Notes: a model not told the origin generated them from the sequence alone. A DNA stretch of 64,000 nt from a candidate division FCPU426 bacterium (GCA_963719085.1 CAVRAL010000001.1:320001-384000), one strand, 5' to 3'. Numbered from the stretch's first letter, positions 15,394 to 52,178 are shown. A program made the numbers and translations.

Positions 15394-15567
15394 TTGAGCA
15401 ATGATGCCCCGGGACCCCATTGAAGGAGTCAAGGAGGCCCGGGACAATACCGCTCTCTCTTGACTCCTTTATGGAAGAGCGGCGCGGACGCAGATAAACG
15501 CCGATTTATGATAAACATGGGATTAGGCAGCTTTTTATCGGCGTTCATCCGCATTTATCATTGTTAA
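15394..15567. repeat. palindrome family B, left arm interrupted
   Basis: GCAATGAT[insert]GGACGCAGATAAACGCCGAT ... ATCGGCGTTCATCCGCATTTATCATTGT. Confidence 0.85.
15406..15485 (+). mobile_element. two-hairpin CGGGACA mini-element, copy 2 (subtype II)
   Basis: GCCCCGGG...CCCGGGACAAT-CCGCTCT...AGAGCGGCGC. Confidence 0.85.
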
Positions 15568-15587
15568 ATTGGTTTTTGTTAGAGGCT

Positions 15588-16334
15588 CTAAGGCTGCGCG
15601 GCGAGGGGAGCGGTCGCCAAGCTGAGCAGGGACAGGGTCAGCACCAGGAAAACATATTGGAAAAGGCCCACATTGTCGGCCTCGTCCGGGACTTGCCGGC
15701 GAAAGGCCTGGAAGAGGGCAAAGCCCAACAGCGCTAAAAGCAGATATTCCCGGGTCAAGGTCAGCGCCAAGCCGATGCCGGCGACGGCAAGCCAGCGTTG
15801 GGGCCGGTTGAGCGAATGAAAGCCCCGTCCGCCGTCCAACTGCCAAAAGGGAATGAGGTTGAACAGATTGATCCAGGCCCCGGTATGGGCGATGGCGGAC
15901 CAGATGCCGTATTGGGTAAAAAGATAAGCCGCCCAGGCGGCGACAGCGGCCCCTAATCCCCAAAAGGGACCGGCGAGCCCGACTCGGGCGTCTTGGATGG
16001 GATTGGAAAAGGATTGCTGGACCCGGATGAAGGCGCCGACGAAAGGAATAAAAAGGGGGGCGGTGGCCTCGATGCCGTAGCTTCGCAGTTTGGCCACGTG
16101 GCCCATCTCATGGATATAAATGGAAAGCACGAAACCCAAGGCGAAAGGCCAGCCCCATTGGTGCCAATAAACGCCGAAAAACAAAAGCATGGATAAAAGT
16201 GTTTTGATTTTAAGAAGGCCCAGCAACAAAAACTTAAATTTGGCGAAGAGCAGGGCCAAGACCGCCAGGATGCTCCATCGGCCTGAGGTGTTTTTCGGTT
16301 TTTGGGAGGGAGTCAGGTCAAATTCGTCGCTCAT
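15588..16334 (-). CDS. site-2 protease (peptidase M50) family protein
   Basis: HEMGH zinc motif, LAGP, FNLIPFWQLDGGR. Confidence 0.9.
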   Translation of the reverse strand: MSDEFDLTPSQKPKNTSGRWSILAVLALLFAKFKFLLLGLLKIKTLLSMLLFFGVYWHQWGWPFALGFVLSIYIHEMGHVAKLRSYGIEATAPLFIPFVGAFIRVQQSFSNPIQDARVGLAGPFWGLGAAVAAWAAYLFTQYGIWSAIAHTGAWINLFNLIPFWQLDGGRGFHSLNRPQRWLAVAGIGLALTLTREYLLLALLGFALFQAFRRQVPDEADNVGLFQYVFLVLTLSLLSLATAPLAAQP

Positions 16335-16354
16335 GCGATTCCTTTTGAAATCAG

Positions 16355-17230
16355 TTAGGGTTTTGGCGGGAAGGGAACCAGTTCCCGGCCGCAGTCCCCG
16401 CACCGGCCTTCGGCGATGACATATTCTATATCACATCTTTGGCAATAGCTCAGGTGGGCGGGCGCGGAAGGCGCGGGCGGCTTCAAAAGATCGGCCGTGT
16501 CCATGCTTAAGTCTTTCAACCACTGGGCCAGCGCTTTTGCCTCGCCGATGGCCGTCGATTCGAGCCATAGGGATTCTTCCGGCCCGCGCGCGGCGGGATA
16601 GCGCAAACGAAGCATCCAGCCGCGGGCCAATCCCCCAAAGGCGGCCTCGTCCAAAAATAATTTCGCCGCGACCAGGGGATGAAAAGCTTTGAGCAGATCA
16701 TCCCCCAAAAGGTCGGCCGACCGGGAAGACTGCCAAGGCGATACCAGGCAGAGGATCGTTCTTTTGATTCGGATCTTTTTTTCGCCGGGGTAGAGCGCGC
16801 GGTGCGCCCGCCCAAAGGCGGCCGTGACGGCCAAGTGAAGCGCCAGAAAAACGCAAAGCAGGACCGCCCAAGCCAAAGGAAAACCCCGCCGGATAAAATA
16901 AAGGGTCAAGGCGGCGAGAACGACGAGCAGCAGGCCCCGGGTGAGCCAGTTTAAAATCCGGGTCTCTTGGTTAAAGGCGTCCCATCGGTTTTGGGCGTCC
17001 TGAACCGAAAGGCTGGCGGGCCCGGGGCTGGGCGCCCCCGGAACGGGGGCGGGGAAGCGGCCGGTGAAGCCCAGGGGCCAGGGATTGCGGAACCTTAACG
17101 CCGGACCTTGGATGAAAGAAAAACGCCGGAACCAAGATAGAAAGAGAATCTCCCCGGGCTTGGCCCATAAACCGCATTCGGCCAGGTAAAGTCCCAAGCC
17201 GAAAAGCAGGAACAGGTCAAGCCGGCTCAA
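16355..17230 (-). CDS. hypothetical membrane protein with C-terminal CxxC...CxxC zinc ribbon
   Basis: TM helices; YCQRC...RCGDC; operonic position. Confidence 0.7.
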   Translation of the reverse strand: MSRLDLFLLFGLGLYLAECGLWAKPGEILFLSWFRRFSFIQGPALRFRNPWPLGFTGRFPAPVPGAPSPGPASLSVQDAQNRWDAFNQETRILNWLTRGLLLVVLAALTLYFIRRGFPLAWAVLLCVFLALHLAVTAAFGRAHRALYPGEKKIRIKRTILCLVSPWQSSRSADLLGDDLLKAFHPLVAAKLFLDEAAFGGLARGWMLRLRYPAARGPEESLWLESTAIGEAKALAQWLKDLSMDTADLLKPPAPSAPAHLSYCQRCDIEYVIAEGRCGDCGRELVPFPPKP

Positions 17231-17251
17231 GGCAGGCTCCCGGTGGGATGA

Positions 17252-18130
17252 TTATTTCACCACGGAGCTTGGCGGATCCCCGTCGTCCTTTTTTCCGCCG
17301 CCGAAGAGCTTTTTGAAAAAGCCGCCGATGACCACGAAAATCACCGCGATGATTTTAAAACCCTTGGCCACCAGAAGCGCAATCAGGCCCCACAGTTTGC
17401 CGAGCAAACCGGTTTTCGCGGCCAAGGCGCCGGCCCCGCCCACCACCAGGGCGGCCAGGCCGATGTCCGCCACCTTATCGCCCGTGGTCCATTCGGCGTA
17501 TTTGTTTCCCTGGGTAAAGGTGAAATCGTTCAAGGTCTTTTCGAAGCCGGGAAGCACGGCCTCAAGGCTTCCATTGGGGTTGAGCACGACATTCATCACG
17601 CCCCGCCGCCCCAGAACGCGGGTGTTGTAGTTCACGAACTCATTACGGTCGTCCTTGATCTGGACGGCCCACTCCAACTTTTGGGTTTGGCTGTTGTACT
17701 TGGGTTTTTCGACCCATTGGACCAACTGCCATTGGGTCCATCCGTTTTCCTTGCGCTTATCGTTGGCTTTTTCATTGTTGGACTGCATGGTGCTCCACAT
17801 CTGGTCCGCGTCCAGCTTTTCGTCGGCCGCGTCCTTGATATAGCCGATGTCGTCGAAGCTGAAGAGCACCAGGTAGCCATGGCCTTTGTCCGGATTGTCC
17901 AAAACACCCAGCTCCGCGTCGGAATAAAGGTTGTGGGTCTTTTCCATGAATTCCTTCATATCATCCTTGCCGAAAAACACGCAGCCCGCGGGAATTTGGA
18001 TCTGGGCGATGTCGCCCAACTGTCCCACCGCGGGGCCCTTGATGGGATGAAGTTCGGCGCGGAGCGGAAGCGGCGCGAGGGCTAAAAACCAAAGGCAAGA
18101 TAAAACCGCGGATAAAAATTTAAAGCGCAT
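17252..18130 (-). CDS. DUF2167 domain membrane-anchored protein
   Basis: GYIKD, KLEWA, VNYNTRVLGRRGV, GDKVADIGLAALVVGG. Confidence 0.85.
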   Translation of the reverse strand: MRFKFLSAVLSCLWFLALAPLPLRAELHPIKGPAVGQLGDIAQIQIPAGCVFFGKDDMKEFMEKTHNLYSDAELGVLDNPDKGHGYLVLFSFDDIGYIKDAADEKLDADQMWSTMQSNNEKANDKRKENGWTQWQLVQWVEKPKYNSQTQKLEWAVQIKDDRNEFVNYNTRVLGRRGVMNVVLNPNGSLEAVLPGFEKTLNDFTFTQGNKYAEWTTGDKVADIGLAALVVGGAGALAAKTGLLGKLWGLIALLVAKGFKIIAVIFVVIGGFFKKLFGGGKKDDGDPPSSVVK

Positions 18131-18209
18131 AGGTCCTCCGAAAATTAAGGTGCGAACGGGGGCTAGTATAAATGGAAAAAGACGTTTGGAAAACCGCGGC
18201 TTGCAGGGA

Positions 18210-20768
18210 TTACCGCAGGATCAGCAGTTTGCCGACCGCGTGGCCCTGGCGGGTGGTGACGAGGATGTAATAGACCCCATTGGCCAACGGCGCGCCTTTC
18301 GCGTCGGTGACCGGCAGGGGCAGGGTCACTAAGCCCGCGGGAATGTTGGGGTAGGATGCCTGGTTTATTTTTCGAAAGGCCGTGGTGAAGGTTTTCAGTT
18401 CCACCTCGGCGGCGGCGGTCTGCATTAAAAATTGGATGCTCACCGGGCCTGAACTGGTGGGTGGGTTAGGGAAAATCACCGGCGGGCCGATGGGCGGCCC
18501 GGCGATCAAGGTAGGGGTAATCGTTGGCGACAAGGTTTGCGTGGGGGTTTGGGTCGGCGTCGCGGTTGGGGTCGGGGTCGGCAGAGGCGTGTGGGTGCGC
18601 GTGGGAGTCGGCGTTGGGGTGATGGTCATGGTCTCCGTAAAGGTTGCCGTAGGGGTAATGGAGGGCGTTAAGGTCACTGTGCTGGTTTCCGTCGGCGTCT
18701 GAGTTTGAGTCGGGGTTTGTGTCACGGTCGGGGTTGGAGTGAGAGTGGGCGTGGCCGTGAGTGTGGCCGTCAAGGTAACGGTGGGCGTCAGCGTGATCGT
18801 CGGCGTAGGGGTAATCGTGGGAGTCAGGGTCACGGTGGCGGTAGGGGTAACGGAGGCGGTCCAGGTGGGGGTTCCGGTGATGGTCGGGGTCGAGGTAATG
18901 GTCGGCGATGAAGTCCAAGTCTTCGTCAAGGTCACGGTCGCCGTGGGAGTAACCGTGGCGGTCAGGGTGGGGGTCGGTGTTTGCGAGGGGGTGGAAGTTG
19001 GGGTCGGGGTTTTGGTCACGGTCGCCGTCGGGGTCACGGTCGGCGTGCGGGTGGGTGTCGGCGTGTATTGGGTCAGGGTGATCTCATATAAGGTGGCCGA
19101 ACGGAAGGGCAGGGTGTCGGAAAAGGTATTGGCGGTAAAGGTGGGCGCTGCCGCGGGCGTGTAGAGGTTATAGGTGGTGGAATCGAACCGAAAGACCCGC
19201 ATGGAGACAATTTGCTGTCCCGCGGTGAGGTTGCTCAGCGTGACGCTGGCTTGGTTGTTGTTGGTGTAATCCTTGTTTAAAAGAATCACGTTGAGGCGCC
19301 CGGGGTGGCTGGTGTCGGTGGCCGCGTAAGCGGAAGTCAGGGACACCGAGCTGGTATTGGCCAAGACCGCCGTGGTCCCGAATTTGGCGTTGGCGCCGTC
19401 ATAGTTCAAATACATCTTGTAGGCGGCTTTCACGTAAGTGTCACTGGTGCCGTCATCCCACCGGCAAGCATAGACCCCGTATTTCCCCAAAATGCCCAGC
19501 GCGTCGGCCTCCGCCACGCCGCCGGAGACGTCCTCGCCCGAACCGTATTGATATTCGGAAAAAGAAAGCTTGGTGCCCGGATAATACTGGCTGACCGCCG
19601 CTTGAAGCCGGGGAATCAGGGTGATGGGTTTGTTGCCGATCGAGGAAGTGATCCAACTGGTCTCAGTGTAGGTCGGGTCCCAAAGCGACCTCGGAGCTTC
19701 CATGCGGGCAATAGCGACACCCTGGGTAATATTATCGTTCGTAATGCGCACTTGGCTCACGCCGTTGCTTCCGGTAGCTTCCGGATACCAATGCAGGTCC
19801 AGGTAATGCAATAGGCGCCGACCCGCCGTGGTGGAGGCTGTCTTCATGCCGGCCAAGTAGTAGTTGAGATATTGGACGCTGTTTCCGTTGGTATAGGGCG
19901 TTAGCAGGCTGTCATCGGACGCGCCTTGGTTGTTCACGTACTCGGCCCAGCCATAGCAAACCGGGCCTAAGACCTGGGCGTTGGGATCCATGGAGGTGAT
20001 GACGGTGGAAAGGCTCACGCCTTTTCCTAAAACTTCCGCGCAGGTGGGCTGGGCGGGATGGATATAAGGATGGGTGCTGTTCCAAAGCGCCGGCTCGTTA
20101 TCCAAATCATAAAACTTAGCCCCGCCGGTTCCGGCCATCCCCACGGTGTTAAAAAGATAGTTGAGGGATTCATCCATATAAACATTGTTGTCGGTGGTCA
20201 CGGGCGCGGTGGTAAAAGCGGAGCCTTTCACATTGACGACTTGTTTCCAATAGACGCCGGCGGTGTCGGCGGCGCCGGTGATGGACACGCTGCAATCGCA
20301 ATTGCCGTTGGCGGACACATAACCGGCCATGGGCAGGGTGATGAGGGAGTCCGCGTTTCGGGCGTTGTTGTTTTCGATGAATTGGGTCATCACGGTGGCG
20401 GGCAGTTGGTTGGCGTTTTGGGGCGGCGCGGGGTTCATGACGGACAGCAGGTACCAATCCTCTTCGTTGATGTAATCAGTCCCGGCGTTGGAAGAATTGT
20501 TTTCCCAGTTATAGCCCGTCATGCGGTTCCCGCCTTGGCGGTAGTAGGGAATTTGGGTGACTCCGATATCCTGGTTGGTCCCGTAGCTATGGATGTCAAT
20601 GGCGCTGTTATTTTGGGTCGGATCAATGGTGAAATTAACCGTAACGGCCCAGGCGGAACCCGCCCCAGCCAAAAACGTTATGAGTGAAACGGTTAAAAAT
20701 TTTCTGGAGAAAATAGGAAAAATGAAACGCCGCCTTGGCTTTAGTGAAAGATTTGAAAAGTTTACCAC
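18210..20768 (-). CDS. secreted GH44 endoglucanase/xyloglucanase with Pro/Thr linker and T9SS-CTD-like C-terminal domain; start uncertain
   Basis: [34 protein letters not shown]; long (TP)n linker; FPNP...LANGVYY...KLLILR tail. Confidence 0.9.
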
Positions 20769-20814
20769 GGGAAAAGGGCTTCGGGCTCCCTGAAAATGTG
20801 TCTGTTTTTACCGC

Positions 20815-22923
20815 TTACAGCGGTTGATGGGTCGGTAGCGCTTTGAAAGGCGATCGGTCCTGGGTCAGGGCCGCTTGGTAGAAATCGTAAAGTTGTTTGT
20901 ACTCATCGCCCGGCAAAATCGTCCGTTTTTTCAGGCCCATATAACGCTCATAACTTAAGGTCCCGAATTGGATCTTCGAGTCGGCGATGAACTCCGCCAC
21001 GTTGTTGGAAATGGCCCCATCCTTGGGCAGGTCGCCGACTTTGTAACCCGGCGGCAACTTCACCACGACCCGGGTGACCGAGTTAAAGCTTTGGGGAACC
21101 ACGATAGGGGTTTTCCGGGTTTCACGCAAAGTCGCGAGGAAATCTTCCACGTCCTCAAAAATGACCGGGTAAAAGTTAAAGCCGCCCTTGGGCTGGAACT
21201 CGGCGTAGCCGGGAATGGTGAAGGAATATTTCACGTGCAGGGGCTGGGTGGTATCGCGGTAATCGCCGTAGGAATAATCCGTGAGGACGGCGCCCGGAAA
21301 ACGCTTGTTCAAACCCCTCAGGACCAAGTCCTTGCGTTTGTCATCCGTGGTGGCCCTAAAAAATTGGCGCAAGGCCAGGTCCGCCGACCCGAAGGCCTGC
21401 AAGTCCACGGTGCAGTTCAAGTCGCCGTTCGGGGAAAAGGTCATCAGGATGTCCCGTTCTTTGCGGTGGTCCTTGGCGCTGAAAGAAGGCGTGGATTGCC
21501 ATTGAAGCGGCGGCAAAACCGCCAGCGCGGAAAGCCCCAGCGCCTGCAGGGGCAAGGTGCCGGGGGCGGCCAGGGGCTCGGTGGGGTCCAGCCAGATAAA
21601 GTCCTTGCCCTGGGGAACGCCGATTAAGACCCCGTCCAACTGGGAAAGGGCCGGAAGGTCGCCGATCAACTCACCGCTGCCGGCTTGGCGGTAAAGAAAA
21701 AGCTGGGGATTAAGTTTAATGGCCTGGAGCGCGGCCATTAAAAGAAGCGCCATGTCGTGGGACGAGCCCTTGCCGCTGGCGATGATTTCCGCGAAGGGGC
21801 GGTCGGGATTCAAATAAACCGGAAGTCCCGTATCAACCCAGTCGACTTTTTCGTGGACGGTGTTTTTGAGTTTGGTGATCCGGTCGATCAGCGCGTCCGC
21901 CGTATTATCGCCGGCCTCGGCGACCAGCGCGTTGATGGCGGTCGGGTCCTGGGCCAGGGCGTTCTTGACCCTTTGGCGGTAGGGCAGGACAGCTTCTTCC
22001 CAGCTTTTATAAGTGGTGAAGGCGGTCAAGGGAGCCAAGTCTTGGATGGGCGGTTGGAAACTTTCGGAGGGGACCGGCGTGATGGAGGGGTTCATCGCCA
22101 AGTGGATGACGCGGTCTTTGGACCCGGTTTCGGAGATGGCCAGGTTCGCGGGCTGGCGCAGGCGGATGGCGTAAAGGGGCATTTGGGTGGATAGGCTCAG
22201 GGTCAATTCCCGGTTGAGGGAAGCGACATAATCATTCCACCGGAAAGCGAAACTGGGCTCGGCGGCCACCGGATGCTGTTTGGTGGGAGTTTTTAAAAGA
22301 TCGCTGGTGTGGTTGGTCAGGGTATAGGTCACGTCCAGGGCTTCGCCGGCTTGAAGGTCCGGCAGGCTATAAGACGCGATTTTGGAAAGCGCGGGCGGAA
22401 GGTTGGGTTGGGGCGGCTGGGACGTGATGGAAACGCCGGCCATGGATTCTTTCGTGAACCCACCGTCCGTTTCCAATTTGTATTTTTGGATTTGATTGAC
22501 GCTCAGGTCTTGGGATTCCAGGTTCAGGGTGGCCAGCGGGGGCAGGGGACGGTCGGGTTTGACCCGGGCGGCCCACATTTGATGGACGGTGACTTTCATA
22601 CTGCGGTCCAGGTTCCATTCCACCTGGGCCTCGTCCAACAGGTTCAACTGATTGGGAGCGTCGGGCTGGGCGAATTGGCTGGCGGCTTGGGAAAGGGATT
22701 GGGAGACCACGGGATCGTCCTGGGGGGTGATCTGGACCGGATTGGTGGCGCAACCGCTCAAGAAAAAAAGGAAAAACCCAAATCCACCGCAAAGACGCCA
22801 AGACGCCAAGGCAGGCAAGTCGCCGCCGAAATCTCGATTTTGATTTTTAAAAATTAGTTTGATATTCCGGAAAGAGGGGGGTTGCGACTTCCTTGGCGGT
22901 TTGGCGTCTTTGCGGTGAAACAT
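20815..22923 (-). CDS. DUF3857/transglutaminase-like/DUF3858 lipoprotein
   Basis: LSGC lipobox, LQAGEALDVTY, GKGSSHDMALLL, WLDPT, VVVKLPPGY. Confidence 0.75.
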   Translation of the reverse strand: MFHRKDAKPPRKSQPPSFRNIKLIFKNQNRDFGGDLPALASWRLCGGFGFFLFFLSGCATNPVQITPQDDPVVSQSLSQAASQFAQPDAPNQLNLLDEAQVEWNLDRSMKVTVHQMWAARVKPDRPLPPLATLNLESQDLSVNQIQKYKLETDGGFTKESMAGVSITSQPPQPNLPPALSKIASYSLPDLQAGEALDVTYTLTNHTSDLLKTPTKQHPVAAEPSFAFRWNDYVASLNRELTLSLSTQMPLYAIRLRQPANLAISETGSKDRVIHLAMNPSITPVPSESFQPPIQDLAPLTAFTTYKSWEEAVLPYRQRVKNALAQDPTAINALVAEAGDNTADALIDRITKLKNTVHEKVDWVDTGLPVYLNPDRPFAEIIASGKGSSHDMALLLMAALQAIKLNPQLFLYRQAGSGELIGDLPALSQLDGVLIGVPQGKDFIWLDPTEPLAAPGTLPLQALGLSALAVLPPLQWQSTPSFSAKDHRKERDILMTFSPNGDLNCTVDLQAFGSADLALRQFFRATTDDKRKDLVLRGLNKRFPGAVLTDYSYGDYRDTTQPLHVKYSFTIPGYAEFQPKGGFNFYPVIFEDVEDFLATLRETRKTPIVVPQSFNSVTRVVVKLPPGYKVGDLPKDGAISNNVAEFIADSKIQFGTLSYERYMGLKKRTILPGDEYKQLYDFYQAALTQDRSPFKALPTHQPL
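22785..22917. repeat. palindrome family A, in frame in the 5' end of the lipoprotein gene
   Basis: CACCGCAAAGACGCCAAGACGCCAAGG ... CCTTGGCGGTTTGGCGTCTTTGCGGTG. Confidence 0.9.
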
Positions 22924-22925
22924 GT

Positions 22926-23588: not shown

Positions 23589-23805
23589 GGGATTCCTTTA
23601 AAGCGGCAAAAGGTTGTTTTAAAAGCCGTTTTGGGGGCCGCCGGGGTCCTTGAAAACTTTGGACGGCCCCCCGGTTGATGCCGTTATACTATCAAAATCA
23701 GCTTCAATATCCTAGGCGCCGGGTTTTTGGGTTTGGTTGTGGTTTTTGCCCCGACCGCCGCGACTCTTATGTCACTGAACTTTTGAACTTATAAAGAAGC
23801 GCCCT

Positions 23806-26800
23806 ATGAAACCTAAAAAATCCGCCGCTTCCGTTCCCGCGCCTCCCTCCTTGGAGGCCTTTCTCCAGCCATTCCTCGAGAACAGCCCCATCATTTTTTG
23901 GTTCATGAACCCGGAAGGCATCGTCGAGTTTTCCTTTGGCCGGGGTTTGGAATCGCTGGGGGTGACGCCCCAGGAGCGGGTGGGAAAATCCGTTTTCGAT
24001 ATTTATCGGGACCATCCGAAGGTTTTGGAGTGCCTGCGCCGCGCGATCCAAGGGGAATCCTTCTCGGAGGTTGTTCCGGTCGGGGATATTTTTTTCGAGA
24101 CGAAATTCATCCCGCGGTTGGACGGCCAAGGCCGGTTGACCGGTTCCATCGGGATCGCCACCGATGTCACGAGCCGTAAAAAAAACGAGGAGTTGATGGA
24201 CCGAAGGGAACAGCATTACCGGTCCTTGATCGAGAACTCCCATGACGTCATTTATATCCTCGACGACAAGGGACACCGCACCTACGAAAGCCCCTCGGTG
24301 GAGAAGGTGCTGGGCTACAAGCCCGGCGAGCGCGCCGGCAGAAGCGTGTATGACTATATCCATTCCGAAGACCACTCGAACGTGCGCGAGATCTTCGACA
24401 AGCTGGCCCACGTGCCGGGCGTCACTTACCGGGTGGAACTGCGCGCCCGGCACAAGGCCGGCGGATGGCGGAATGTGGAGGTGGCCATCACCAATTTGTT
24501 GGAAGACCCGGCGGTGCGGGGCTGGGTCGTTAATTTTTGGGACATCACGGAGCTCAAACGCGCCGGCGAGATCGTGGAAAAGCAGGAGCAGTATTACCGC
24601 GCCTTGACCGAAAATACCCACGAACTGGTCGTGCTTTTGGACCGGGAAGCGGTCATCCGATTCGCCACGCCGTCGATCCAGAAAATTCTGGGCCACCCCC
24701 TCTCGGACCGGATCGGAAAAAACTTTTTGGAATGGGTCCATCCGGAGGATATTTACCGCACCAAGGAAGTTTTCACCCAAACCTATCTCTCGACGGGGCG
24801 GACCATGACGGTGGATTTCCGCGCCAGGCACCGGGACGGCTCCTGGCGTTTTTTGGAAGCGGCGGTCACCAACCTTTTCAACCACCCGGCGGTGGAAGGA
24901 ATGATTTTAAACGCGCGGGATGTCACCGAACGCAAAAAAACCGACGAGGCTTTGCGGGACCGGGAACGCTACTTCAGGGCCCTGACCGAAAACGCCTATG
25001 ACGTGGTTTATGTCATCGACCGGGACGGACGGCGGTTTTACGAAAGTCCTTCCACCGAGCGGGTGCTGGGATTTCGGCCCGGCGACCGGGATCCCGAAAG
25101 CACCTTTTCCTATCTTCATCCGGAGGACCAGGCGGCGGGGAAGGCGGCTTTCCAAAAATCCCTTCAAAATCCCGGGGTGCCGGTGGCGGCGGAACTGCGC
25201 ACCCGGCATAAGGACGGCCGGTGGATCCATATGGAAGTGGTGGCCACCAACCTGCTTGACGTGGCCGCGGTCCGGGGCGTGGTGGTCAATTGCCGTGAGA
25301 TCACCGAGCGCAAAAAAGCCGAGGAGGACCTGCGCCATTCGGAGGAGCGGTTCCGCAACCTGATTGAGAGCTCCCACGACGTGGTGAATCTTTTTGACGG
25401 GACCGGAAAAATTCAATATGTCAGCCCGTCGGTGAAAAGGGTTTTGGGTTATGAGACCGCCGAATTGATCGGCCAAACCAGCTGGGAATGGATCCATCCG
25501 GAGGACCTGGCCAAAGCGAGTCCGGTTTTTGAGCAGGTCATGCGGGCCCCGGGGCAGTCCCGGTCCATTGAAATCCGCTTGAGGCATAAGGATGGAACCC
25601 ACAAAAATATCGACCTCACCATGACCAACCTTTTGGACAATCCCGCGGTGCGGGGTATTGTGGCCAATTACCGCGACGTGACCGAGCGGGTCCGCACCGA
25701 GGAAAAATTCAGGAACTTGATCGAGAACTCCCGGGATGTGATCGCCGTGGTGGACATGCAAGGGCGCTCCTTTTATGTCAGCCCCTCGATCCGCAAGGTG
25801 ATGGGTTACGAGCCGGAGGATTGGATGGACCGCAATTTCCTGGAGCTCATCCATCCGGACGAGCGGGAAGCCGCCCGGCAGGGATTTGAACAGCTCATGA
25901 CCAGCCCCGGCGGCTCCATTTCGGCCCAAGTCCGGGCCCTGCATAAAAACGGCTCCTGGCGGCTGGTGGACGTGACCTGCACCAACCTTTTGCAGGACCC
26001 GACGGTGCAGGGGATTATTTTCAATTACCGGGACATCACTGAAAAGTATATGGCGGAAGAAGCGGTGAAGGTTTCCGAAGAAAGATTCCGGAACCTGATC
26101 GAGAATTCCAATGACGTGATCTCGCTCGTCAACGCCCAGGGGACGAACCTCTATATCAGCCCCTCCATCCGGAAGGTCATGGGCTATGATCCGGACGAAA
26201 GGATGGGCCGGAACTTTTTTGAGATCATCCACCCGGAGGACTTGGGATGGATTAAGAATGAATATGAGGATTTTTTGAGGCAGAAGAACAGCGTGCGCAC
26301 GATCCAGGCGCGGGCCCGGCACCGGGACGGGACCTGGCGCACCGTGGAAGTGACGGCCACCAATCTGCTCGACCACCCCTCCGTGGCCGGCGTTATTTTC
26401 AATTACCGGGACGTCACCGAGCGCCGCAAGGCCGAAGCGGCCTTGAAAAAGTCCGAGGAGAATTTTAGGTCGCTCATTGAGAAATCGCCCGACGCCATGA
26501 TCGTCCATACCGAGGAGAAGATTTATTACGTCAATGAGGCCTTATTGAAGCTTTTGGGTTATGACCTGCCCGACGATCTGGTGGGCAAGTCGCCCTTGAG
26601 CATGCTCCATCCGGACGACCATGAGAGGGTTTTGATACGGATCCGAAGGCTCAAACCCTTTGAGGGATTCAACCCGCCCCAAGAAAAAAGGTTTTTGCGC
26701 AAGGACGGGGGTTATATCGAGGTGGAAACGGTGAGCTTCTCCATTCTTTTTGAGGGGTCGCCCATGGTGGTGGCCATCGCCCGCGACTTGACCGACCGCA

Positions 26801-28862: not shown

Positions 28863-28889
28863 GAACTTCTAACAAAAACCTAATTCACC

Positions 28890-28964
28890 GCCCCGCCCGG
28901 CCTAGTTAGGCCGAACCAGGCGGGACATACCACCCTCAATATCATTTTATATATGGATGGTGGT
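28890..28964 (+). mobile_element. two-hairpin CGGGACA mini-element, copy 3 (subtype I)
   Basis: GCCCCGCC-GGCCTA/TAGGCC-GGCGGGACAT-ACCACC...GGTGGT. Confidence 0.8.
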
Positions 28965-28974
28965 GCCAAGACGC

Positions 28975-29048
28975 TCCCGGCGGCCGTAGTTCAGGCCAAT
29001 CGGCCGGGACATATCGCCTTCTTAATTATTTTTGTCAGGAGGGCGATG
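28975..29048 (+). mobile_element. two-hairpin CGGGACA mini-element, copy 4 (subtype I)
   Basis: TCCCGGC-GGCC...GGCC-GCCGGGACAT-ATCGCC...GGCGAT; boundaries +/-2 nt. Confidence 0.8.
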
Positions 29049-29072
29049 CAAGCTCGCCAAGAAAAAAGGCCG

Positions 29073-29150
29073 CATCCGTGTTCATCTGCGCGCGCGCCGC
29101 TCCACCCTCTATGAGCAAAGGGAGAGCGGCGTTGTCCCGGGCATCTGTGG
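29073..29150. repeat. family B right arm, interrupted
   Basis: CATCCGTGTTCATCTGCGCGC[insert]ATCTGTGG. Confidence 0.7.
29094..29142 (-). mobile_element. two-hairpin mini-element, copy 5 (subtype II, first hairpin deleted)
   Basis: minus strand GCCCGGGACAACGCCGCTC...GAGCGGCGC inserted after CAGAT. Confidence 0.7.
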
Positions 29151-29211
29151 CAAAACCTGTTTTGGCGTTGTTTTTTTCCTCTTTAAAGACTTACCCAATT
29201 TGCGCTTTCGG

Positions 29212-30994: not shown

Positions 30995-31148
30995 ACAATG
31001 ATGTCCCGGGTCCCCCTATTGAAGTCAAAGCCGCCCGGGACAATGTCGCTCACCCCTAAACTGTTTTATGCAGAAGCGGCGCGGACGCTGATCAACGCTG
31101 ATAAAAAAACAAGACATTTGGTTCAAACCAATCCGCGTTCATCAATGC
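30995..31148. repeat. palindrome family B, left arm interrupted
   Basis: ACAATGAT[insert]GGACGCTGATCAACGCTGAT ... ATCCGCGTTCATCAATGC. Confidence 0.8.
31003..31082 (+). mobile_element. two-hairpin CGGGACA mini-element, copy 6 (subtype II)
   Basis: GTCCCGGG...CCCGGGACAATGTCGCT...AGCGGCGC. Confidence 0.85.
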
Positions 31149-34860: not shown

Positions 34861-35024
34861 CTGCTCACGCAAAGACGCTAAGACGCCAAGGAAACATTGA
34901 GAATTAAATGATTTTTTGAGAGTCTATTCTTGTTGTTGGCGGCTTAGCCGTTTTGAAAACCGTCTCTTTCATTCTGCTTAAAAGATTTGCCTTCCTTTGC
35001 GTCTTAGCGTCTTTGTGTGAGCGG
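34861..35024. repeat. palindrome family A variant (empty)
   Basis: GCTCACGCAAAGACGCTAAGACGCCAAGG ... CCTTTGCGTCTTAGCGTCTTTGTGTGAGC. Confidence 0.9.
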
Positions 35025-37541: not shown

Positions 37542-37626
37542 ACAATGATGAACGCAGATGAAAACAGATTTTCAAAAAATTAAGGCTTATCTATTTTCAT
37601 CAGCGTCCATCTGCGTTCATCATTGT
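37542..37626. repeat. palindrome family B (empty reference copy)
   Basis: ACAATGATGAACGCAGATG ... CATCTGCGTTCATCATTGT perfect 19-bp arms. Confidence 0.9.
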
Positions 37627-41615: not shown

Positions 41616-41635
41616 AGATAATTATCGAAAACCTA

Positions 41636-41736
41636 TTTCACCACCAAGGCACCAAGACGCCAAGGACGGCTAAACTGAGGGTATTTAACCCAAATTATTT
41701 TTGCTTTCTTGGTGTCTTGGTGCCTTGGTGGTAAAA
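41636..41736. repeat. palindrome family A variant (empty)
   Basis: ACCACCAAGGCACCAAGACGCCAAG ... CTTGGTGTCTTGGTGCCTTGGTGGT. Confidence 0.9.
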
Positions 41737-43103: not shown

Positions 43104-43280
43104 GCCGGGTCTTATTTTCCCGTCGCTGGCTCCGGAGCCCCGGCACACCCAGGGCGCGGTCTTCGACTCCTGGCCGAAGATCTGGGGGGGGTTAGAAGTG
43201 TTTTGAAAATGAAGGTTTGTGTTATTATACGGCTCCTCAAAACCGGCCCTTTCGGGGCCTTTTTTATTTGTCTCGCCTTC

Positions 43281-43309
43281 CTTGGCGCCTTGGCGTCTTG
43301 GCGGTGAAA
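43281..43309. repeat. solo right arm of family A
   Basis: CTTGGCGCCTTGGCGTCTTGGCGGTGAAA with no left arm upstream. Confidence 0.75.
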
Positions 43310-45121: not shown

Positions 45122-45200
45122 GCGAAGAGCCGTTTAAACGGTTCGTTGATCAGCGCCGCTTAAAATCCCTTCAAAATAAGGGCCTTTTCCGGGGTTCGGC

Positions 45201-45229
45201 TTGACGAATGAAAGTCCTGATTCGATAAT
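45201..45229 (+). promoter_or_regulatory. putative sigma-70 promoter
   Basis: TTGACG-17bp-GATAAT. Confidence 0.55.
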
Positions 45230-45288
45230 AAAACCAGGCAAACAAGCGGACTATTTTAAGAAGGCTTGAACTTCTAGGAGAGACCCAA

Positions 45289-45777: not shown

Positions 45778-45818
45778 GTTCGGGAAGCGAAGTCCGGAAA
45801 AGCAGGATTTTAAAACCG

Positions 45819-45860
45819 AAAACTCCCTTTTTCCCGGTTGGGAAGAGGGAGTTTTTTTTT
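45819..45860 (+). terminator. intrinsic terminator
   Basis: AAAACTCCCTTTTTCCC/GGGAAGAGGGAGTTTT hairpin plus T-run. Confidence 0.8.
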
Positions 45861-45880
45861 AATGTTTTTAATTGAAACAA

Positions 45881-46062
45881 TTTTACCGCCAAGGCGCCCC
45901 GCTGGCCCATTGGGGGCCAAACGAGCGGGACAGTGCCGCCCCCATTAATTTTTTTATGGAGGGGCGGCCGCCAAGTTCGCCAAGAACAGCGAAAGACGAA
46001 GGCTTTTAAAACATATTTGGATTTAGCCTTTCTTGGCGAACTTGGCGCCTTGGCGGTGAAAA
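45881..46062. repeat. palindrome family A, left arm interrupted
   Basis: removing the insert gives ACCGCCAAGGCGCCAAGTTCGCCAAGAA, the exact reverse complement of the right arm. Confidence 0.92.
45896..45969 (+). mobile_element. two-hairpin CGGGACA mini-element, copy 7 (subtype I)
   Basis: GCCCCGCT-GGCCC...GGGCC-AGCGGGACAGT-GCCGCCCC...GGGGCGGCC. Confidence 0.88.
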
Positions 46063-46101
46063 AGTTTTTTTTGAGATTTAAATCTATCAGGAGTTTTTGA
46101 A

Positions 46102-47091: not shown

Positions 47092-47093
47092 CG

Positions 47094-47546
47094 ATGAAAC
47101 TATTGATCCGTGACGGACATGCCCGCAATCCGATTTCCCCAGTCTTGGCCCGCCGTTGGGCGGCGAAGGTCGTCCGCGCCGTCAAGGGCGCTTCCTTCGA
47201 GCGCCAATGCGAGCTTTCGGTGGTCTTTACCGGGGACGCCGAGGTGCGGAAGATGAACCGGCTTTACCGGAAAAAAGATAAGACCACCGATGTGCTGGCT
47301 TTTCCCTTGCGGGAAGGAAAATTATTGCGCGCCGGGCTTCCGGGTTCGGGGGCTTTGGGGGATGTGATGATCAGCGTGCCTCAAACCCTGCGCCAGGCGA
47401 AAGCCGCGGGCAAGAAGCCCCGGGAAGAAATGGCGCTGCTGCTGACCCACGGAATTTTGCATCTTTTGGGATATGACCACGTGACCCTTCGGCAGGAAAA
47501 GCGCATGTTTGGCTTGCAGAACCGTCTTTTAAAGAAATTGGTCTAA
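47094..47546 (+). CDS. ybeY: rRNA maturation endoribonuclease YbeY
   Basis: TDVLAFP, HGILHLLGYDH. Confidence 0.95.
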   Translation: MKLLIRDGHARNPISPVLARRWAAKVVRAVKGASFERQCELSVVFTGDAEVRKMNRLYRKKDKTTDVLAFPLREGKLLRAGLPGSGALGDVMISVPQTLRQAKAAGKKPREEMALLLTHGILHLLGYDHVTLRQEKRMFGLQNRLLKKLV

Positions 47547-47555
47547 AGGGAAAAA

Positions 47556-48941
47556 TTGGATTACTACCTCGCCACCCATTTAATCGTCCTGGCCGCCATG
47601 CTTTTGGTCTCCATGTTTTTTTCGGCGGTCGAGACAAGCCTTTTGTCCGCCCCCCGGAGCCTGATCCAGGCGCAATCCGAAAAGTCGGGGCTTTTGGGGA
47701 TCGCTTTCCGGGAATGGGCCGAGCATCCCAACCGCATCCTGACCACGGTCTTAATCGGAAACAACTCGATCAACGTTTTAGCCACCATCCTGGCGGCCTA
47801 TACGGCCGTTCACTTGGCGGACCTGAACCAGTGGAGCCAGGTGGTCACGGGAACCGTGACCTCCGTTTTCGTCACCTTCATCGTGATCGTTTTCGGGGAA
47901 ATGATCCCCAAGATCACCGCCCGCAGTTTGGCGGCGCGCGTGGTGGTGTGGCTCATTATTCCCATCTACTTGATTGACCGGGCGATCCGCCCCATCACGG
48001 TCGGCATGGCCCGTATTCTTATTTTCTTCGTTCCGAGCCTGGCCAACACCACGGTCTCCCAAGTGACGGAAGAGGACATCAAGCACTTGATCGAGGTGGG
48101 GCGCCAGGACGGAACCATCCGCGAGGATGAGCAGGACATGATCCACTCGGTCTTCAAATTCAGCGATACCACGGTGAACCAGCTGATGATCCCGCGCACC
48201 GAGATGTTTTGCGTGGACCTGAAAATCGAGCTTAACGCGCTTTTGGACATGGCCATCCAGACCGGTTATTCCCGGGTGCCGGTTTATAAAGGCAACGTGG
48301 ACAATATCATCGGCATCATCCACACCCGGGACCTGCTTTCCATTTGGCGCAACCAGGGGCTGATTGTGATCCAGGATCTTTTGCGAAAACCCTATTTCGT
48401 GCCGGAGACCATGCGGGTGGACCGGCTTTTGCGGGAATTTCGCCGGGGCAAAATCCATATGGCCATCGTGGTGGATGAATACGGTGGCACCTCGGGCCTG
48501 GTGACCCTGGAGGATTTGGTCGAGGAAATCATCGGCGAGATAAGAAATGAGCACGAGCCCGAGGATAAGTCCATGGAGCGGCAGGAAGATGGATCCTATG
48601 TCATTGAGGCGGGCACGTCCTTGGACGAGATTAATGAAAGCCTGGGCACGCATCTCACCCCCCAGGGTGAAGTCACGACCTTAGGCGGTTATTTGACCGA
48701 GCAAAACGGCAAGGTTCCGAAAAAGGGCCGGGTCTTGGACGAATACGAAATCACCTCCACTGTTTTGGAATCCGATGAGAAGAAAGTCATCAAGGTGAAG
48801 CTGGTGAAGAAGGACGTTCCTTATCCGCCCCAGGAAGCGGAACAAAAACCGGCGGCGCCCAAACCGCGTAAAAGGCGGGTTAAACAGCCGGCCCCGGCGC
48901 AAGAACAAGTGGCCGAGTCGGAAGCGCCGAAGGAAAAATAA
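47556..48941 (+). CDS. hemolysin/CNNM family protein (DUF21-CBS-CBS-CorC)
   Basis: FFSAVET, GEMIPK, YSRVPVY, VDEYGGTSGLVTLED. Confidence 0.92.
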   Translation: MDYYLATHLIVLAAMLLVSMFFSAVETSLLSAPRSLIQAQSEKSGLLGIAFREWAEHPNRILTTVLIGNNSINVLATILAAYTAVHLADLNQWSQVVTGTVTSVFVTFIVIVFGEMIPKITARSLAARVVVWLIIPIYLIDRAIRPITVGMARILIFFVPSLANTTVSQVTEEDIKHLIEVGRQDGTIREDEQDMIHSVFKFSDTTVNQLMIPRTEMFCVDLKIELNALLDMAIQTGYSRVPVYKGNVDNIIGIIHTRDLLSIWRNQGLIVIQDLLRKPYFVPETMRVDRLLREFRRGKIHMAIVVDEYGGTSGLVTLEDLVEEIIGEIRNEHEPEDKSMERQEDGSYVIEAGTSLDEINESLGTHLTPQGEVTTLGGYLTEQNGKVPKKGRVLDEYEITSTVLESDEKKVIKVKLVKKDVPYPPQEAEQKPAAPKPRKRRVKQPAPAQEQVAESEAPKEK

Positions 48942-48950
48942 AAAGTTTGA

Positions 48951-49087
48951 ACCACAGAGTACACAGAGTTACACGGAGTAAGGCGGCAGGCTGCATCAAT
49001 TGAAGTTTGAACAAGTTTTTAACCAAGTGATTTATCTGTCATAAAAGGACTTTGTTTTACTCTGTGTAACTCTGCGTACTCTGCGGT
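48951..49087. repeat. palindrome family C
   Basis: ACCACAGAGTACACAGAGTTACACGGAGTAA ... TTACTCTGTGTAACTCTGCGTACTCTGCGGT. Confidence 0.9.
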
Positions 49088-49105
49088 AAATGATCCGAGG
49101 TTTTT

Positions 49106-49204
49106 TTGAACTACTTAGACTGTCACAATCCCTCGCTAACGCGTGGGGCCCGTTTCACGGATAAATGTTTTGCAGTTATCTGCTGTTTTGGAAGGGTTTC
49201 GTGA
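49106..49204 (+). other. 32-codon leader ORF duplicating the PHP gene start; stop overlaps the PHP GTG
   Basis: MNYLDCHN... versus MNLLDCHNH; GAGG RBS; GTGA overlap. Confidence 0.6.
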
Positions 49205-49965
49205 ATTTATTAGACTGTCATAATCATACCGCCGAATGGTCGGATGGGCGCCAATCCATTGAGCAGGTTTTGGAAAAGTCCAAAATCGAGAAGGTGCGGG
49301 TGGGGCTTTCGGACCACGCGGGGCTGGGGGAATATCTCAATTCCAACGACCGCTTGCTGGCTTACGCTGATTTTCTTTCCCAATATCCGGTGGCCCGGGG
49401 ATTGGAAATGGATTTGGGTCGAAGCTTTTTAGTCCAGCCTGAAACCAGGGCCCGGTTTGATTATATGATCGGAAGCGTCCATGGCATGGAAGTGGCGGGG
49501 GTGAGGCTCGGTTTCAGTCCCTTGATTCAATTCATCAAAGGGGAAAAGCCGGACTACAATCCGCTGGAGCAAATCAAGGACCTGGATCTTTTTTTTAAAA
49601 CCCACCTTCAAATTTTGACCCGGGAATACCAAACCCAAAAGTATGACATCCTGGGCCATTGCACCATGTTGCCGCCCCTGGCGCTCGGCAAGCCCGAGGA
49701 TGTTTTCCCCGAATGGTGGGAAGACCAGTTGATCGCGCTTCTTTTAAAACAAGGCGTGGCCATGGAAATTTCCAACCGTTGGAAAACGCCTTACGACCGG
49801 TTGATGCAAAAAGGCGTGGCGGCGGGTTTAAAATTTTCCGTGGGCTCGGACGGCCATGATCCGGCCAAAACCTGCGTGCTGGACTATCCCAAACAAATGA
49901 TGAGCCGTTTCAAACTTCCTGAGGCCCGGGTTTTTGACATTGCCCGTCCCCTCGAGGCGGCTTAA
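49201..49965 (+). CDS. PHP-domain phosphoesterase (histidinol phosphatase-like)
   Basis: DCHNHT, SDH, GLEMD, GSVH, GH, GSDGH. Confidence 0.88.
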   Translation: MNLLDCHNHTAEWSDGRQSIEQVLEKSKIEKVRVGLSDHAGLGEYLNSNDRLLAYADFLSQYPVARGLEMDLGRSFLVQPETRARFDYMIGSVHGMEVAGVRLGFSPLIQFIKGEKPDYNPLEQIKDLDLFFKTHLQILTREYQTQKYDILGHCTMLPPLALGKPEDVFPEWWEDQLIALLLKQGVAMEISNRWKTPYDRLMQKGVAAGLKFSVGSDGHDPAKTCVLDYPKQMMSRFKLPEARVFDIARPLEAA

Positions 49966-50919
49966 ATGAGCGAAATGGACATTGTCCCCCAAGCGGATTT
50001 GACCCCGCCCGAGGACTTTATTTGCGGCGCGGTGGCGATTTTAGGAAAGCCCAATGTGGGCAAGTCGACCTTTATGAATACCGCCATGGGCCACAAGCTG
50101 GCCATCGTGTCGCCCCGGCCCCAAACCACCCGGGGCTCCATGGCGGGCATTTACCAGGAAGAGGGATGTCAGATCGTTTTTTATGACACGCCGGGAATCC
50201 ATCAGCCGAAGAACAAACTTTCCAAATTTATGCTTCATGAAGTTGAGGAAGTTTTGGACGGAGCCGACGCGGCGTTATTTTTAATCGATGTGCGCCTAGG
50301 GATTACGGATGAGGAACGGCTGGTGGCCGAGTGGCTTAAAAGTTTTAAAAAGACCGCCTGGGTGGTTTTGAACAAGGTGGATCAGGTGGCCTTGACCCGG
50401 GTGGGGGCGGTGGCCGACAAGGTCCGCAAGGAACTGGGGGATTGGCCCATCCGGTCAATGGCCGCCCTGACGGGGAAGGGCGTGAAGGACATCATTACGG
50501 AGCTTAAGCGGGTGCTGCCCCGGCAGGCGGCGCTTTTCCCGCCGGAAGAATTGACCAACAAGAACATGCGGGAAATCGCTTCCGAATTGATCCGGGAACA
50601 GTGCTTTTTGCAGTTAAAAGACGAAATTCCTTACGGCGTGGCCGTCGTGGTGGAAAAATATGAAGAGCGGCAACCGCCCGAGCCGATCCTGATCCAAGCG
50701 ACGATTTACGCCGAAAAAGACAGCCAAAAGGGTATTTTAATCGGAGCCGGGGGCAAACAGCTCAAGGCCATTGGGACGGCGGCGCGAAAAGAGATTGAGG
50801 CCCTGACTGACCAAAAAGTTTTCCTGGAATTATGGGTGAAAGTCCTTAAGAATTGGCGCAAGGACGAGTCAGTTTTGAAGCGGCTCGGCTATCAGGCGCC
50901 GAAGAAACCAAAGAGTTAA
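49966..50919 (+). CDS. era: GTPase Era
   Basis: GKPNVGKS, PQTTR, DTPG, NKVD, KH domain. Confidence 0.97.
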   Translation: MSEMDIVPQADLTPPEDFICGAVAILGKPNVGKSTFMNTAMGHKLAIVSPRPQTTRGSMAGIYQEEGCQIVFYDTPGIHQPKNKLSKFMLHEVEEVLDGADAALFLIDVRLGITDEERLVAEWLKSFKKTAWVVLNKVDQVALTRVGAVADKVRKELGDWPIRSMAALTGKGVKDIITELKRVLPRQAALFPPEELTNKNMREIASELIREQCFLQLKDEIPYGVAVVVEKYEERQPPEPILIQATIYAEKDSQKGILIGAGGKQLKAIGTAARKEIEALTDQKVFLELWVKVLKNWRKDESVLKRLGYQAPKKPKS

Positions 50920-50934
50920 TCCAACGGAGGCCTC

Positions 50935-51987
50935 ATGAATCGTGTCCATCCCAAAACCAAGCTGGTTTGCACCATCGGCCCCGCTTGCCGCTCCGACGCC
51001 ATGCTGGAAAAACTTCTGGTGGCCGGCATGAACGTGGCCCGGATCAATTTCGCCCACGGCACCATTGAGAAGAACGGCGAGGACATCCACCGCGTCCGCA
51101 AGGCTTCCCTCAAAACCAAGCGCCCCTGCCAAATTTTGGCCGACCTGCCGGGCCCCAAGATCCGCGTAGGCCAATTGCGGCACGAGCCCGTGAACCTGGT
51201 GCATGGCAAGACCGTTTGGCTCACCACCCGAAAAATTTCCGGCAACGTGGCCCATATCCCCATCGAGTATCCCCAGCTTACCCAAAGCGTGAAGAAGGGG
51301 AGCGTGATCTACCTCAATGACGGCTTCATGCAACTGCTGGTCCTTTCGGTCAAGGGGACCGAGGTGGAATGTAAGGTGCTGGTGGGCGGGGAATTGTTCA
51401 CCCACAAGGGATTGAACCTTCCCTCGGCGAAGCTTTTCGTGGACCCTGTGACACCCCATGACCTGGAGATTTTGGAGTACGGCATGAAGGAGGGGGTGGA
51501 CTTCTTCGGGGTTTCCTTTGTCCAACGGGCAGCCGATCTGCTGAAAGTTCGCGCCTTCGCCAGCAAGCGGGGGAAAATCGTCAAGATCATCGCCAAAATT
51601 GAGCGTTCGGAAGCCATCCGCAACATCGATTCCATCCTCAAGGTCACCGACGGAATCATGGTGGCCCGGGGCGACTTGGGCGTGGAAGTTCCCATTGAGA
51701 CCATGCCCATCCTCCAAAAGCGGCTCATCGCCAAGGCCAACTGGGCCGGGGTGCCGGTCATCACGGCCACCCAGATGCTGGAATCCATGACCCACAACAT
51801 CCGCCCTACCCGGGCGGAAGTCACCGACGTGGCCAACGCCATTTTGGACGGAACCGACGGCGTCATGCTCTCGGGCGAGACCGCCATCGGCGAGGACCCG
51901 GTCAATACGGTGGAAATGATGGGCAAGATCGCCGTTTCGGTGGAAAAAGCTTTCCTGAAGGAAAAATCAGCGGTGCATTGGTTTTAA
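50935..51987 (+). CDS. pyk: pyruvate kinase (short, lacks the C-terminal domain)
   Basis: [47 protein letters not shown]. Confidence 0.92.
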
Positions 51988-52004
51988 AGTCTTCCGGCAA
52001 AAAA

Positions 52005-52178
52005 ATTAGCAATGATATCCCGGGATTCCATATTGTGGTTAAAGATACCCGGGACAATGTCGCTCTCCCCTAACTTCTAAATGAGGAAGCGACGCGAACG
52101 CAGATGGAAGCCGATAGAAGATTTGTGAACCATTTGAATTTGTTTAATCCGCGTGTATCTGCGTTCATCATTGCTAAT
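52005..52178. repeat. palindrome family B, left arm interrupted
   Basis: ATTAGCAATGAT[insert]GAACGCAGAT ... ATCTGCGTTCATCATTGCTAAT. Confidence 0.92.
52017..52095 (+). mobile_element. two-hairpin CGGGACA mini-element, copy 8 (subtype II)
   Basis: ATCCCGGG...CCCGGGACAATGTCGCT...AGCGACGC. Confidence 0.88.

Follow-up and report, generated by a model that had tools for sequence, protein, structure and literature searches.

How do blocks of non-coding DNA of 74-80 nt come to interrupt the arms of intergenic palindromes, and why does one type of block lie in one palindrome family while a second type lies in another? This question is raised by a 64,000-nt segment from a candidate division FCPU426 bacterium (GCA_963719085.1, CAVRAL010000001.1:320001-384000; hereafter the window), an ordinary bacterial chromosome segment with a base composition of about 55% G+C. 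It carries eight such inserts, four of branch I and four of branch II, inside two families (A and B) of hairpins resembling repetitive extragenic palindromic (REP) sequences. We give a probability of roughly one half to the explanation that all eight belong to one family of non-coding mobile elements, precisely joined into the REP-like arms and moved by an enzyme encoded elsewhere; any mover would have to act in this way because the elements are too small to encode anything.

Census of the inserts

Six copies, two of branch I and four of branch II, were obtained by motif search and nhmmer. The motif, CGGGACARYRYCRCYCNCN{17,23}RGYGRC, matched all 6 copies then known in the window, where 0 matches were expected. 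Two further branch-I copies, divergent and missed by both plain motif and nhmmer searches, were detected with covariance model R1 run with filters off (28890-28966, 29.0 bits; 28974-29049, 35.4 bits). A second covariance model, R2, was built from all 8 copies and run on the 64-kb window, yielding exactly 8 inserts at E <= 5.9e-9. At E <= 0.01, the model otherwise matches just II-a and I-b again, as echoes on the opposite strand, and the next new place, at E 0.035, lies within coding sequence. The inserts are listed below, with insertion points marked by a caret and the outermost limits given wherever several placements are equivalent.

8137..8213 (-): I-a, 75 nt, in unit 2 of the right arm of family-A hairpin A8k; R2 78.5 bits, fold z -4.67; three equivalent placements (8137-8211, 8138-8212, 8139-8213)
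45895..45972 (+): I-b, 74 nt, in unit 2 of the left arm of family-A hairpin A45k; R2 78.8 bits, fold z -4.32; five equivalent placements (45895-45968 to 45899-45972)
28890..28967 (+): I-c, 75 nt, divergent, in unit 1 of a family-A left arm (CACCG^CCAAG); R2 62.5 bits, fold z -6.01; four equivalent placements
28975..29048 (+): I-d, 74 nt, divergent, in unit 2 of the arm that holds I-c; R2 67.8 bits, fold z -3.76; unique placement, GACGC^...^CAAG
15406..15486 (+): II-a, 80 nt, in the left arm of family-B hairpin B15k (CAATGAT^GGACGC); R2 71.2 bits, fold z -3.48; two placements
31003..31083 (+): II-b, 80 nt, in the left arm of family-B hairpin B31k (CAATGAT^GGACGC); R2 71.9 bits, fold z -0.90, alone not significant; two placements
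52017..52095 (+): II-c, 79 nt, in the left arm of family-B hairpin B52k (CAATGAT^GAACGC); R2 71.6 bits, fold z -3.22; unique placement
29092..29159 (-): II-d, without the 5' half of hairpin 1, a deletion visible in the model alignment; R2 41.7 bits

The initial annotation had assigned subtype I, with its inner GGCC..GGCC stem, to family-A (GCCAAG) arms and subtype II (CCCGGG...CCCGGGACAA, ending GCGGCGC or GCGACGC) to family-B arms. Both assignments are confirmed, 4/4 in each case, with lengths of 74-75 nt for the former, two copies of which need the covariance model, and 79-80 nt for the latter. The interval proposed for the set, 15406..52095, holds for seven inserts, while I-a at 8137-8213 falls outside it. 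Because one arm holds both I-c and I-d, these two cannot be counted as independent. Together, the loci of both host families occupy 2,039 of the 64,000 nt including inserts, within about 7.4 kb of intergenic DNA, and all 8 inserts lie inside them. Relative to the arm motif, insert orientation is the same in 8/8 copies. On the chromosome, 6/8 lie on the G-rich + strand, and a replication-strand bias is not significant.

Junctions and insertion sites

Family-A arms consist of two or three tandem units, CACCGCCAAG-ACGCCAAG-NNCGCCAAG, followed by a variable loop and the inverted arm, while a family-B arm reads CAATGAT-GAACGCAGAT-GAACGCCGAT. Against this background, the limits of the inserts can be read by excision. 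When 75 and 74 nt are taken out of the doubly filled arm (28.88-29.06 kb), the remaining 28 nt match the left arm of A8k at every base; without the 74 nt of I-b, the arm at 45.9 kb equals its own partner arm in reverse complement. I-a (75 nt) as well as II-a, II-b and II-c (80, 80 and 79 nt) can be placed by the same reasoning. The inserts are hence, as had been supposed, discrete units that precisely entered pre-existing palindromes. I-d and II-c are uniquely placed without repeated bases, so there is no target duplication; the other inserts can each be shifted by the 1-4 nt of microhomology at their junctions.

Each branch is tied to a target motif of its own, which likewise agrees with the initial annotation. 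Branch I enters at CG^CCAAG, with I-d shifted by one base, and branch II at CAATGAT^GRACGC in all 3 intact copies; on the opposite strand these targets read CTTGG^ and GCGTYC^, respectively. Branch-I copies occupy two different units (I-c in unit 1; I-a, I-b and I-d in unit 2) and both arms (I-a in a right arm, the other three in left arms). It had also been claimed that subtype II lies immediately 3' of GAT in every copy. This is true of the 3/3 intact copies, to which the rule has to be limited because the 'GAT' of II-d aligns with an internal AGAT of II-c. The 3' end of II-d abuts family-B units (GCGCAGAT GAACACGGAT), and its family-B context is defined by this 3' flank alone.

Structure and kinship of the two branches

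All 8 copies can be aligned, and the string CGGGACA is invariant in 8/8. A full copy comprises a 5' hairpin with its foot at the first or a near-first base, a linker of 3-4 nt, and a 3' hairpin that stops 0-3 nt short of the copy's end. This structure is conserved: in the alignment, pairing holds in 93.0% of cells, compared to 81.2% in column shuffles (0/500 reach the observed value) and 42-49% with the partners slid, and double changes occupy 18 cells vs 7.1 in shuffles. Additionally, 6/8 copies fold better than all 200 of their shuffles. Because both terminal hairpins and the invariant CGGGACA core are common to the two branches, and because compensatory changes are found in 7/15 consensus base pairs, branches I and II are homologous. 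Their separation receives 91/94 support on the 8-row tree, with identities of 36-61% between branches and 65-72% among branch-II copies. Within branch I, I-c and I-d form long branches: identity to I-a and I-b is 62-63% for I-c and 50-54% for I-d, and the two agree with each other at 53%. Terminal inverted repeats are absent, with no end-to-end inverted repeat in the alignment of the copies.

One copy, II-a, is almost self-complementary from end to end (15406-15485), giving 43 bits with R1 on the opposite strand, and its loop 1 pairs with the loop of hairpin 2. Long-range pairing in I-a and II-a was dropped as a feature of the family since it is not kept in the other copies. A reading of the inserts as RNA genes was likewise dropped, 5 copies being sense and 3 antisense to their neighbouring genes.

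Insertion, co-amplification or copying

According to the favoured explanation, the mobile element would be a 74-80-nt DNA with two hairpins nearly reaching both ends and a short linker after CGGGACA. Joining would be precise, without duplicated or lost host bases and in a single orientation, and the joining points would be the boundaries of short tandem units within the arms of two REP-like hairpin families. Branch I would be directed to CG^CCAAG in the family-A unit and branch II to GAT^GRACGC in the family-B unit, each with a target specificity of its own, set either by the sequence of the element or by two partner enzymes or RNAs. The likeliest movers would be a hairpin-recognising transposase acting on single-stranded DNA (ssDNA; HUH/Y1-type) or an IS110-like recombinase with a guide RNA.

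As an alternative, the link between insert and host could stem from co-amplification of a composite, in which one ancestral insertion per host family was followed by joint multiplication of host and insert, the empty hosts representing an older form. This would account for II-a, II-b and II-c, which all interrupt a left arm at one and the same junction on the + strand, and for 4/5 family-B loci being filled. The I-a and I-b composites, moreover, align with 84% identity over 101 nt including the arms; this alignment, however, ends at the arm end without entering the loop. The loops of the family-B hosts also count against common descent as a composite and are, for branch II, the sole evidence of this kind: they cannot be aligned with one another in either orientation (all p > 0.09), whereas the branch-II inserts within these hosts do align at the identities given above. 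Empty sites were found at 7/10 family-A loci and 1/5 family-B loci (B37k), besides every partner arm of the filled hairpins, and the arm variant common to filled A8k and A45k and empty A56k speaks against a composite. Above all, branch I occurs in two units and in both arms, and one arm has been hit twice by copies that are 53% identical, which argues for repeated site- and orientation-specific insertion of branch I over a single composite. Hence, branch I arose by several independent events, and co-amplification as raised in the initial annotation is difficult to reconcile with them; branch II, with its three intact copies at one site, is compatible with it. As an explanation of the whole set we regard co-amplification as very unlikely.

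A second alternative needs no targeting machinery. If gene conversion or template switching over the conserved arm units carried inserts from arm to arm within a family, flank homology would by itself produce the link between subtype and host. The arms are indeed highly conserved, their repeated units would permit out-of-register copying between unit 1 and unit 2 as well as the double insert, and 0/8 inserts lie outside a host arm. A further hint comes from the family-B sites: among uninterrupted GAT-plus-unit junctions, 4/5 read GAACGC and 1/5 GGACGC, while GGACGC stands beside the insert at 2/3 filled sites and could be a co-converted flank. On the other hand, the homology available amounts to only about 7-16 nt per side, and the 5' flank of I-c (TTCACCG) has only CG in common with the unit-2 flank. 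Compensatory changes, which keep both hairpins across branches as divergent as those described above, point to selection on structure that passive copying leaves unexplained, and the fixed orientation and single-nucleotide junctions in two unrelated motifs fit an enzyme as well. Homology-driven copying is thus an unlikely explanation.

The question of how a target would be chosen leads to a third possibility, favoured by the initial annotation, that the element carries its own target specifier. The apical loop of hairpin 1, for example, might pair with the flank, and a change in this loop might have retargeted branch II from A to B units. At alignment columns 15-21, within the hairpin-1 loop, I-a reads TCTTGG and I-b TTGG, complementary to their 5' flanks CCAAGA and CCAA. 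In II-a, II-b and II-c the corresponding bases are ATTG (CATTG in II-a), the complement of CAAT(G) in the 5' flank of these copies. The match vanishes when the branches are swapped. In IS608, according to excerpts of PMC3201880, each hairpin foot is preceded on its 5' side by a guide of 4 nt that pairs with the cleavage site, cleavage falls 19 nt 5' and 10 nt 3' of the feet, and a change of guide predictably alters the target. The geometry found in the window is a different one: hairpin feet lie 0-3 nt from the junctions, compared with 19 and 10 nt in those excerpts (PMC3201880), which leaves no room for a guide, so the IS608 arrangement does not apply. Furthermore, I-d has no loop match and that of I-c lies two to three bases further upstream, so that the match is in register in 5/7 of the copies that have the loop, and the offset between loop match and junction differs between branches I and II. 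The complementarity, 4-6 nt in 5 copies, is not significant after post-hoc selection of the loop segment; by our own arithmetic, a segment of 8 nt and a flank of 10 nt have about a 14% chance per lineage of matching at some 4-mer, and copies within a branch are not independent. An IS200/IS605-like guide beside the end hairpin, as previously suggested, is therefore not supported, given the unlike geometry and the loss of register in 2/7 copies, and a specifier carried by the element itself appears quite unlikely.

A bridge RNA, the other guide considered in that annotation, cannot fit into 75 nt and would need a partner element, of which there is none in the window. More speculatively, a 75-nt ssDNA 'dumbbell' might pick its site through hairpin-1 loop pairing (TTGG:CCAA in branch I, ATTG:CAAT in branch II) with the help of one undescribed hairpin-recognising enzyme. 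We consider this a long shot; if true, such dumbbells would be the smallest self-targeting mobile DNAs known and the two branches a natural retargeting experiment between two palindrome families.

Several observations weigh against the favoured explanation. Outside the host arms, CGCCAAG occurs 47 times in the window and in no case with an insert, a null result that is weakened by the fact that 45/47 of these occurrences are coding, where an insert would be lost. All intact branch-II copies share one site, arm and strand, so that nothing forces more than one branch-II insertion. The sample comprises 8 copies related by descent, which makes the 4+4 split between branches and hosts weak evidence: its probability of 1/70 (own arithmetic) presupposes independent copies and is therefore optimistic. 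II-b and II-d fold no better than shuffles. A scan of 48 open reading frames (ORFs) in the window, 10 of which are without any family, revealed neither a transposase nor a recombinase, and no longer element with the same ends was detected in the window by the R1 and R2 searches. Finally, a common orientation of A8k and A45k, which would put I-a and I-b in opposite arms of like-oriented hosts, is only modestly supported (loop alignment p 0.001 forward vs 0.04 reverse), and the family-B loops say nothing about host orientation.

Comparison with known systems

Site-specific non-autonomous DNA aimed at intergenic palindromes is a kind already known, and the inserts are real palindrome-targeting, non-autonomous elements that probably add a new variant to it. 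Among autonomous elements, several REP-targeting insertion sequences (IS) are named in excerpts of Tobes and Pareja 2006 (PMC1525189), namely ISPa11, ISPpu9, ISPpu10 and ISRm19 (IS110), ISPsy8 (IS3) and ISRm22 (IS4). In this 'type 1' association, a whole IS sits at one fixed REP position, and joining of the flanks rebuilds the REP (PMC1525189, excerpts). The inserts resemble these elements, as far as the excerpts describe them, in using the same palindrome position in each copy, in the rebuilding of the palindrome on joining and in having a palindrome of their own per element; unlike the inserts, which are 74-80 nt long and non-coding, the IS encode their own transposases with Pfam transposase domains (PMC1525189). 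Two sister branches on different palindrome families, with tandem-unit boundaries inside the arms as targets, set the inserts further apart. REP-targeting IS elements are, moreover, of kilobase size.

A further parallel is ssr9, a small non-coding module of ISPpu9 that, according to PMC12288879, is circularised and moved alone by the REP-targeting ISPpu9 transposase. What resembles the inserts here is a small non-coding passenger of a REP-inserting IS110-family element (PMC12288879). Unlike ssr9, however, which is a small-RNA gene linked to a known IS, the inserts match no RNA family and have no IS in the window.

In anatomy, the IS200/IS605 elements and their miniatures (palindrome-associated transposable elements, PATEs) come closest, with end hairpins, no terminal inverted repeats, no duplication and seamless junctions, and apparently also with strand- and orientation-specific insertion beside a short motif. 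Differences are seen in the best-conserved branch-I target bases (CCAAG), which lie 3' of the insertion point, and in the absence of TnpA from the window. PATEs insert in one orientation on the 3' side of a fixed target of 4-5 nt; among the inserts, GAT^ was found in 3/3 intact branch-II copies and CG^ within 1 nt in 4/4 branch-I copies, the conserved bases of the latter lying mainly 3'.

A passenger of an IS110/IS1111 element would be similar in its site- and orientation-specific entry into a palindromic repeat, without inverted repeats or duplication. In IS110/IS1111 elements, one core dinucleotide, shared by target and donor, recurs at the two junctions. A reading of branch I as CG...YG would agree with this in 4/4 copies, while II-c has no common bases at its unique junctions. 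An att-like (attachment-site) core common to circle junction and target was dropped, as there is none for branch II. Neither a DEDD recombinase nor a bridge or seek RNA was found in the window by Rfam and ORF family scans.

Two further classes were rejected. Classical miniature inverted-repeat transposable elements (MITEs) do not fit, given the lack of both terminal inverted repeats and target-site duplication. In a REPIN, a doublet of REP sequences, one REP hairpin occurs as an inverted pair, each with a conserved 5' tetranucleotide (GTAG rule), and movement depends on a REP-associated tyrosine transposase (RAYT). The two hairpins of the inserts are unlike in sequence, stand in direct order and have no GTAG-like 5' tetranucleotide in common, so that a REP/REPIN identity was discarded; the likeness consists in GC-rich imperfect hairpins with a bulge, which are intergenic, non-autonomous and present many times per genome.

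Two examples of inserts or motifs tied to a palindrome type are familiar. In mosaics of Escherichia coli bacterial interspersed mosaic elements (BIMEs), the type of linker motif follows the type of the neighbouring palindromic unit, the motifs lying between REPs and not inside an arm, and the enterobacterial repetitive intergenic consensus (ERIC), itself an intergenic palindrome, has copies interrupted at fixed internal positions by about 70 bp of extra sequence. Neither the BIME nor the ERIC case is known to involve two homologous hairpin elements having separate targets.

If the two branches are truly separate in target, they would offer a minimal natural pair for studying what gives a non-autonomous element, or the enzyme that serves it, a new target: between them, an element of about 75 nt and a target of 7-9 nt differ, with all else constant in one genome. 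At the same time, the link between palindromes and site-specific mobile DNA, so far drawn by full-length IS elements, would gain tiny passengers in an uncultured lineage that lacks any annotation.

Searches beyond the window

In genome contigs with 10-kb flanks, the six-copy motif was matched in at least 114 stretches from unrelated, mostly GC-rich genomes, and nhmmer applied to them found no real copy; the best match among the listed 114 stretches has an E of 0.015, and none is full-length. A filled family-B and a filled family-A locus gave no match in plasmids or phages with blastn in distant mode. A translated search of the I-a/I-b alignment with its arms against a set of 5.8 billion proteins returned 2 word candidates at near lengths and 225 at longer lengths, none of which scored. 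In the literature, no full-text match to three arm strings was obtained, nor a description of nested or site-specific MITEs in palindromes like these inserts.

Host palindromes

The hosts themselves are abundant in the window. GCCAAG occurs 135 times, compared with 49 expected; 10 family-A loci were counted, among them two solo arms (one right, one left), and 5 family-B loci, one of which is a solo arm. Loci are as follows.

8044..8227: A8k, family-A hairpin, filled (I-a in the right arm)
15399..15563: B15k, family-B hairpin, filled
22784..22920: family-A hairpin, empty
28883..29062 (+): family-A left arm with I-c and I-d, no partner arm
30996..31147: B31k, family-B hairpin, filled; left arm of 3 units, right arm of 2
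34863..35021: family-A hairpin, empty, GCAAAG/GCTAAG variant
37543..37625: B37k, sole empty family-B locus; fold z -7.49
41637..41736: family-A hairpin, empty, ACCAAG variant
43280..43309: solo family-A right arm, empty
45882..46061: A45k, family-A hairpin, filled (I-b in the left arm)
52010..52173: B52k, family-B hairpin, filled
55754..55854: family-A hairpin, empty
56799..56924: A56k, family-A hairpin, empty, with the arm variant of filled A8k and A45k; fold z -6.69
58235..58337: family-A hairpin, empty, two arms of different variants

The empty examples, one for each family, fold far beyond shuffles, as indicated by the z-scores given for A56k and B37k. Both kinds of hairpin lie in short spacers within operons, a placement like that of REPs and BIMEs; their arms, in contrast, are built of tandem units of 8-10 nt and are not single hairpins. 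Arms of 2-3 such units with unconserved loops, found in both families, are unusual among REP/BIME-like hairpins. Arm variants are common to both arms of a locus, for instance ACCAAG at 41.6 kb and GCAAAG/GCTAAG at 34.9 and 55.8 kb, although the locus at 58.2 kb combines two different variants. Family-A copies occupy every spacer of pyrR|pyrB|pyrC|carA and of hisS|aspS. The two families meet in a mosaic at 28883-29159: the doubly filled family-A left arm ends 12 nt ahead of a family-B right arm (29075-29091) that carries the partial branch-II insert, and both arms lack a partner.

Genomic setting

The window encodes housekeeping functions (ffh, hisG, hisS, aspS, phoH-ybeY-corC-era, pyk, pyrR-pyrB-pyrC-carA-carB). 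Its source contig measures about 1.44 Mb, on which a hundred or more inserts would be expected if their density equalled that of the window. The closest relatives of AspS are proteins of metagenome-assembled genomes (94% identity), while those of Thermodesulfobacteriota are about 56% identical. Rfam 15 gave 0 matches in the whole window at gathering thresholds, and permissive Rfam searches returned hairpin-like noise only, at best 26.7 bits vs a threshold of 83 bits.

Of practical relevance is that nests of inserts inflate and distort gene calls, as one open frame crosses a nest into a real gene. This frame of 387 codons (7921-9081, +) spans the A8k hairpin together with I-a and continues into the gene behind them, which has a methyltransferase-like motif and could receive a false N-terminal extension in gene calling.

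Repeats of other kinds were also observed. At 18400-19100 (-), a long repeat of 6-nt periodicity, with 21 overlapping copies of a 68-nt register, lies within a glycoside hydrolase family 44 gene and is probably a low-complexity linker. Repeats of 378-nt periodicity at 24400-26500 (+) correspond to the run of PAS domains in a histidine kinase of 1235 amino acids. Two direct repeats of 33 nt, 95 nt apart and 79% identical, are found at 49098-49225, upstream of and overlapping the start of an ORF (49165-49965) that has no family match. Finally, the 170-nt spacer after hisS (43104-43309) contains a terminator-like hairpin (GGCCCTTTCGGGGCC followed by a T run), directly after which the solo family-A right arm stands just upstream of aspS.

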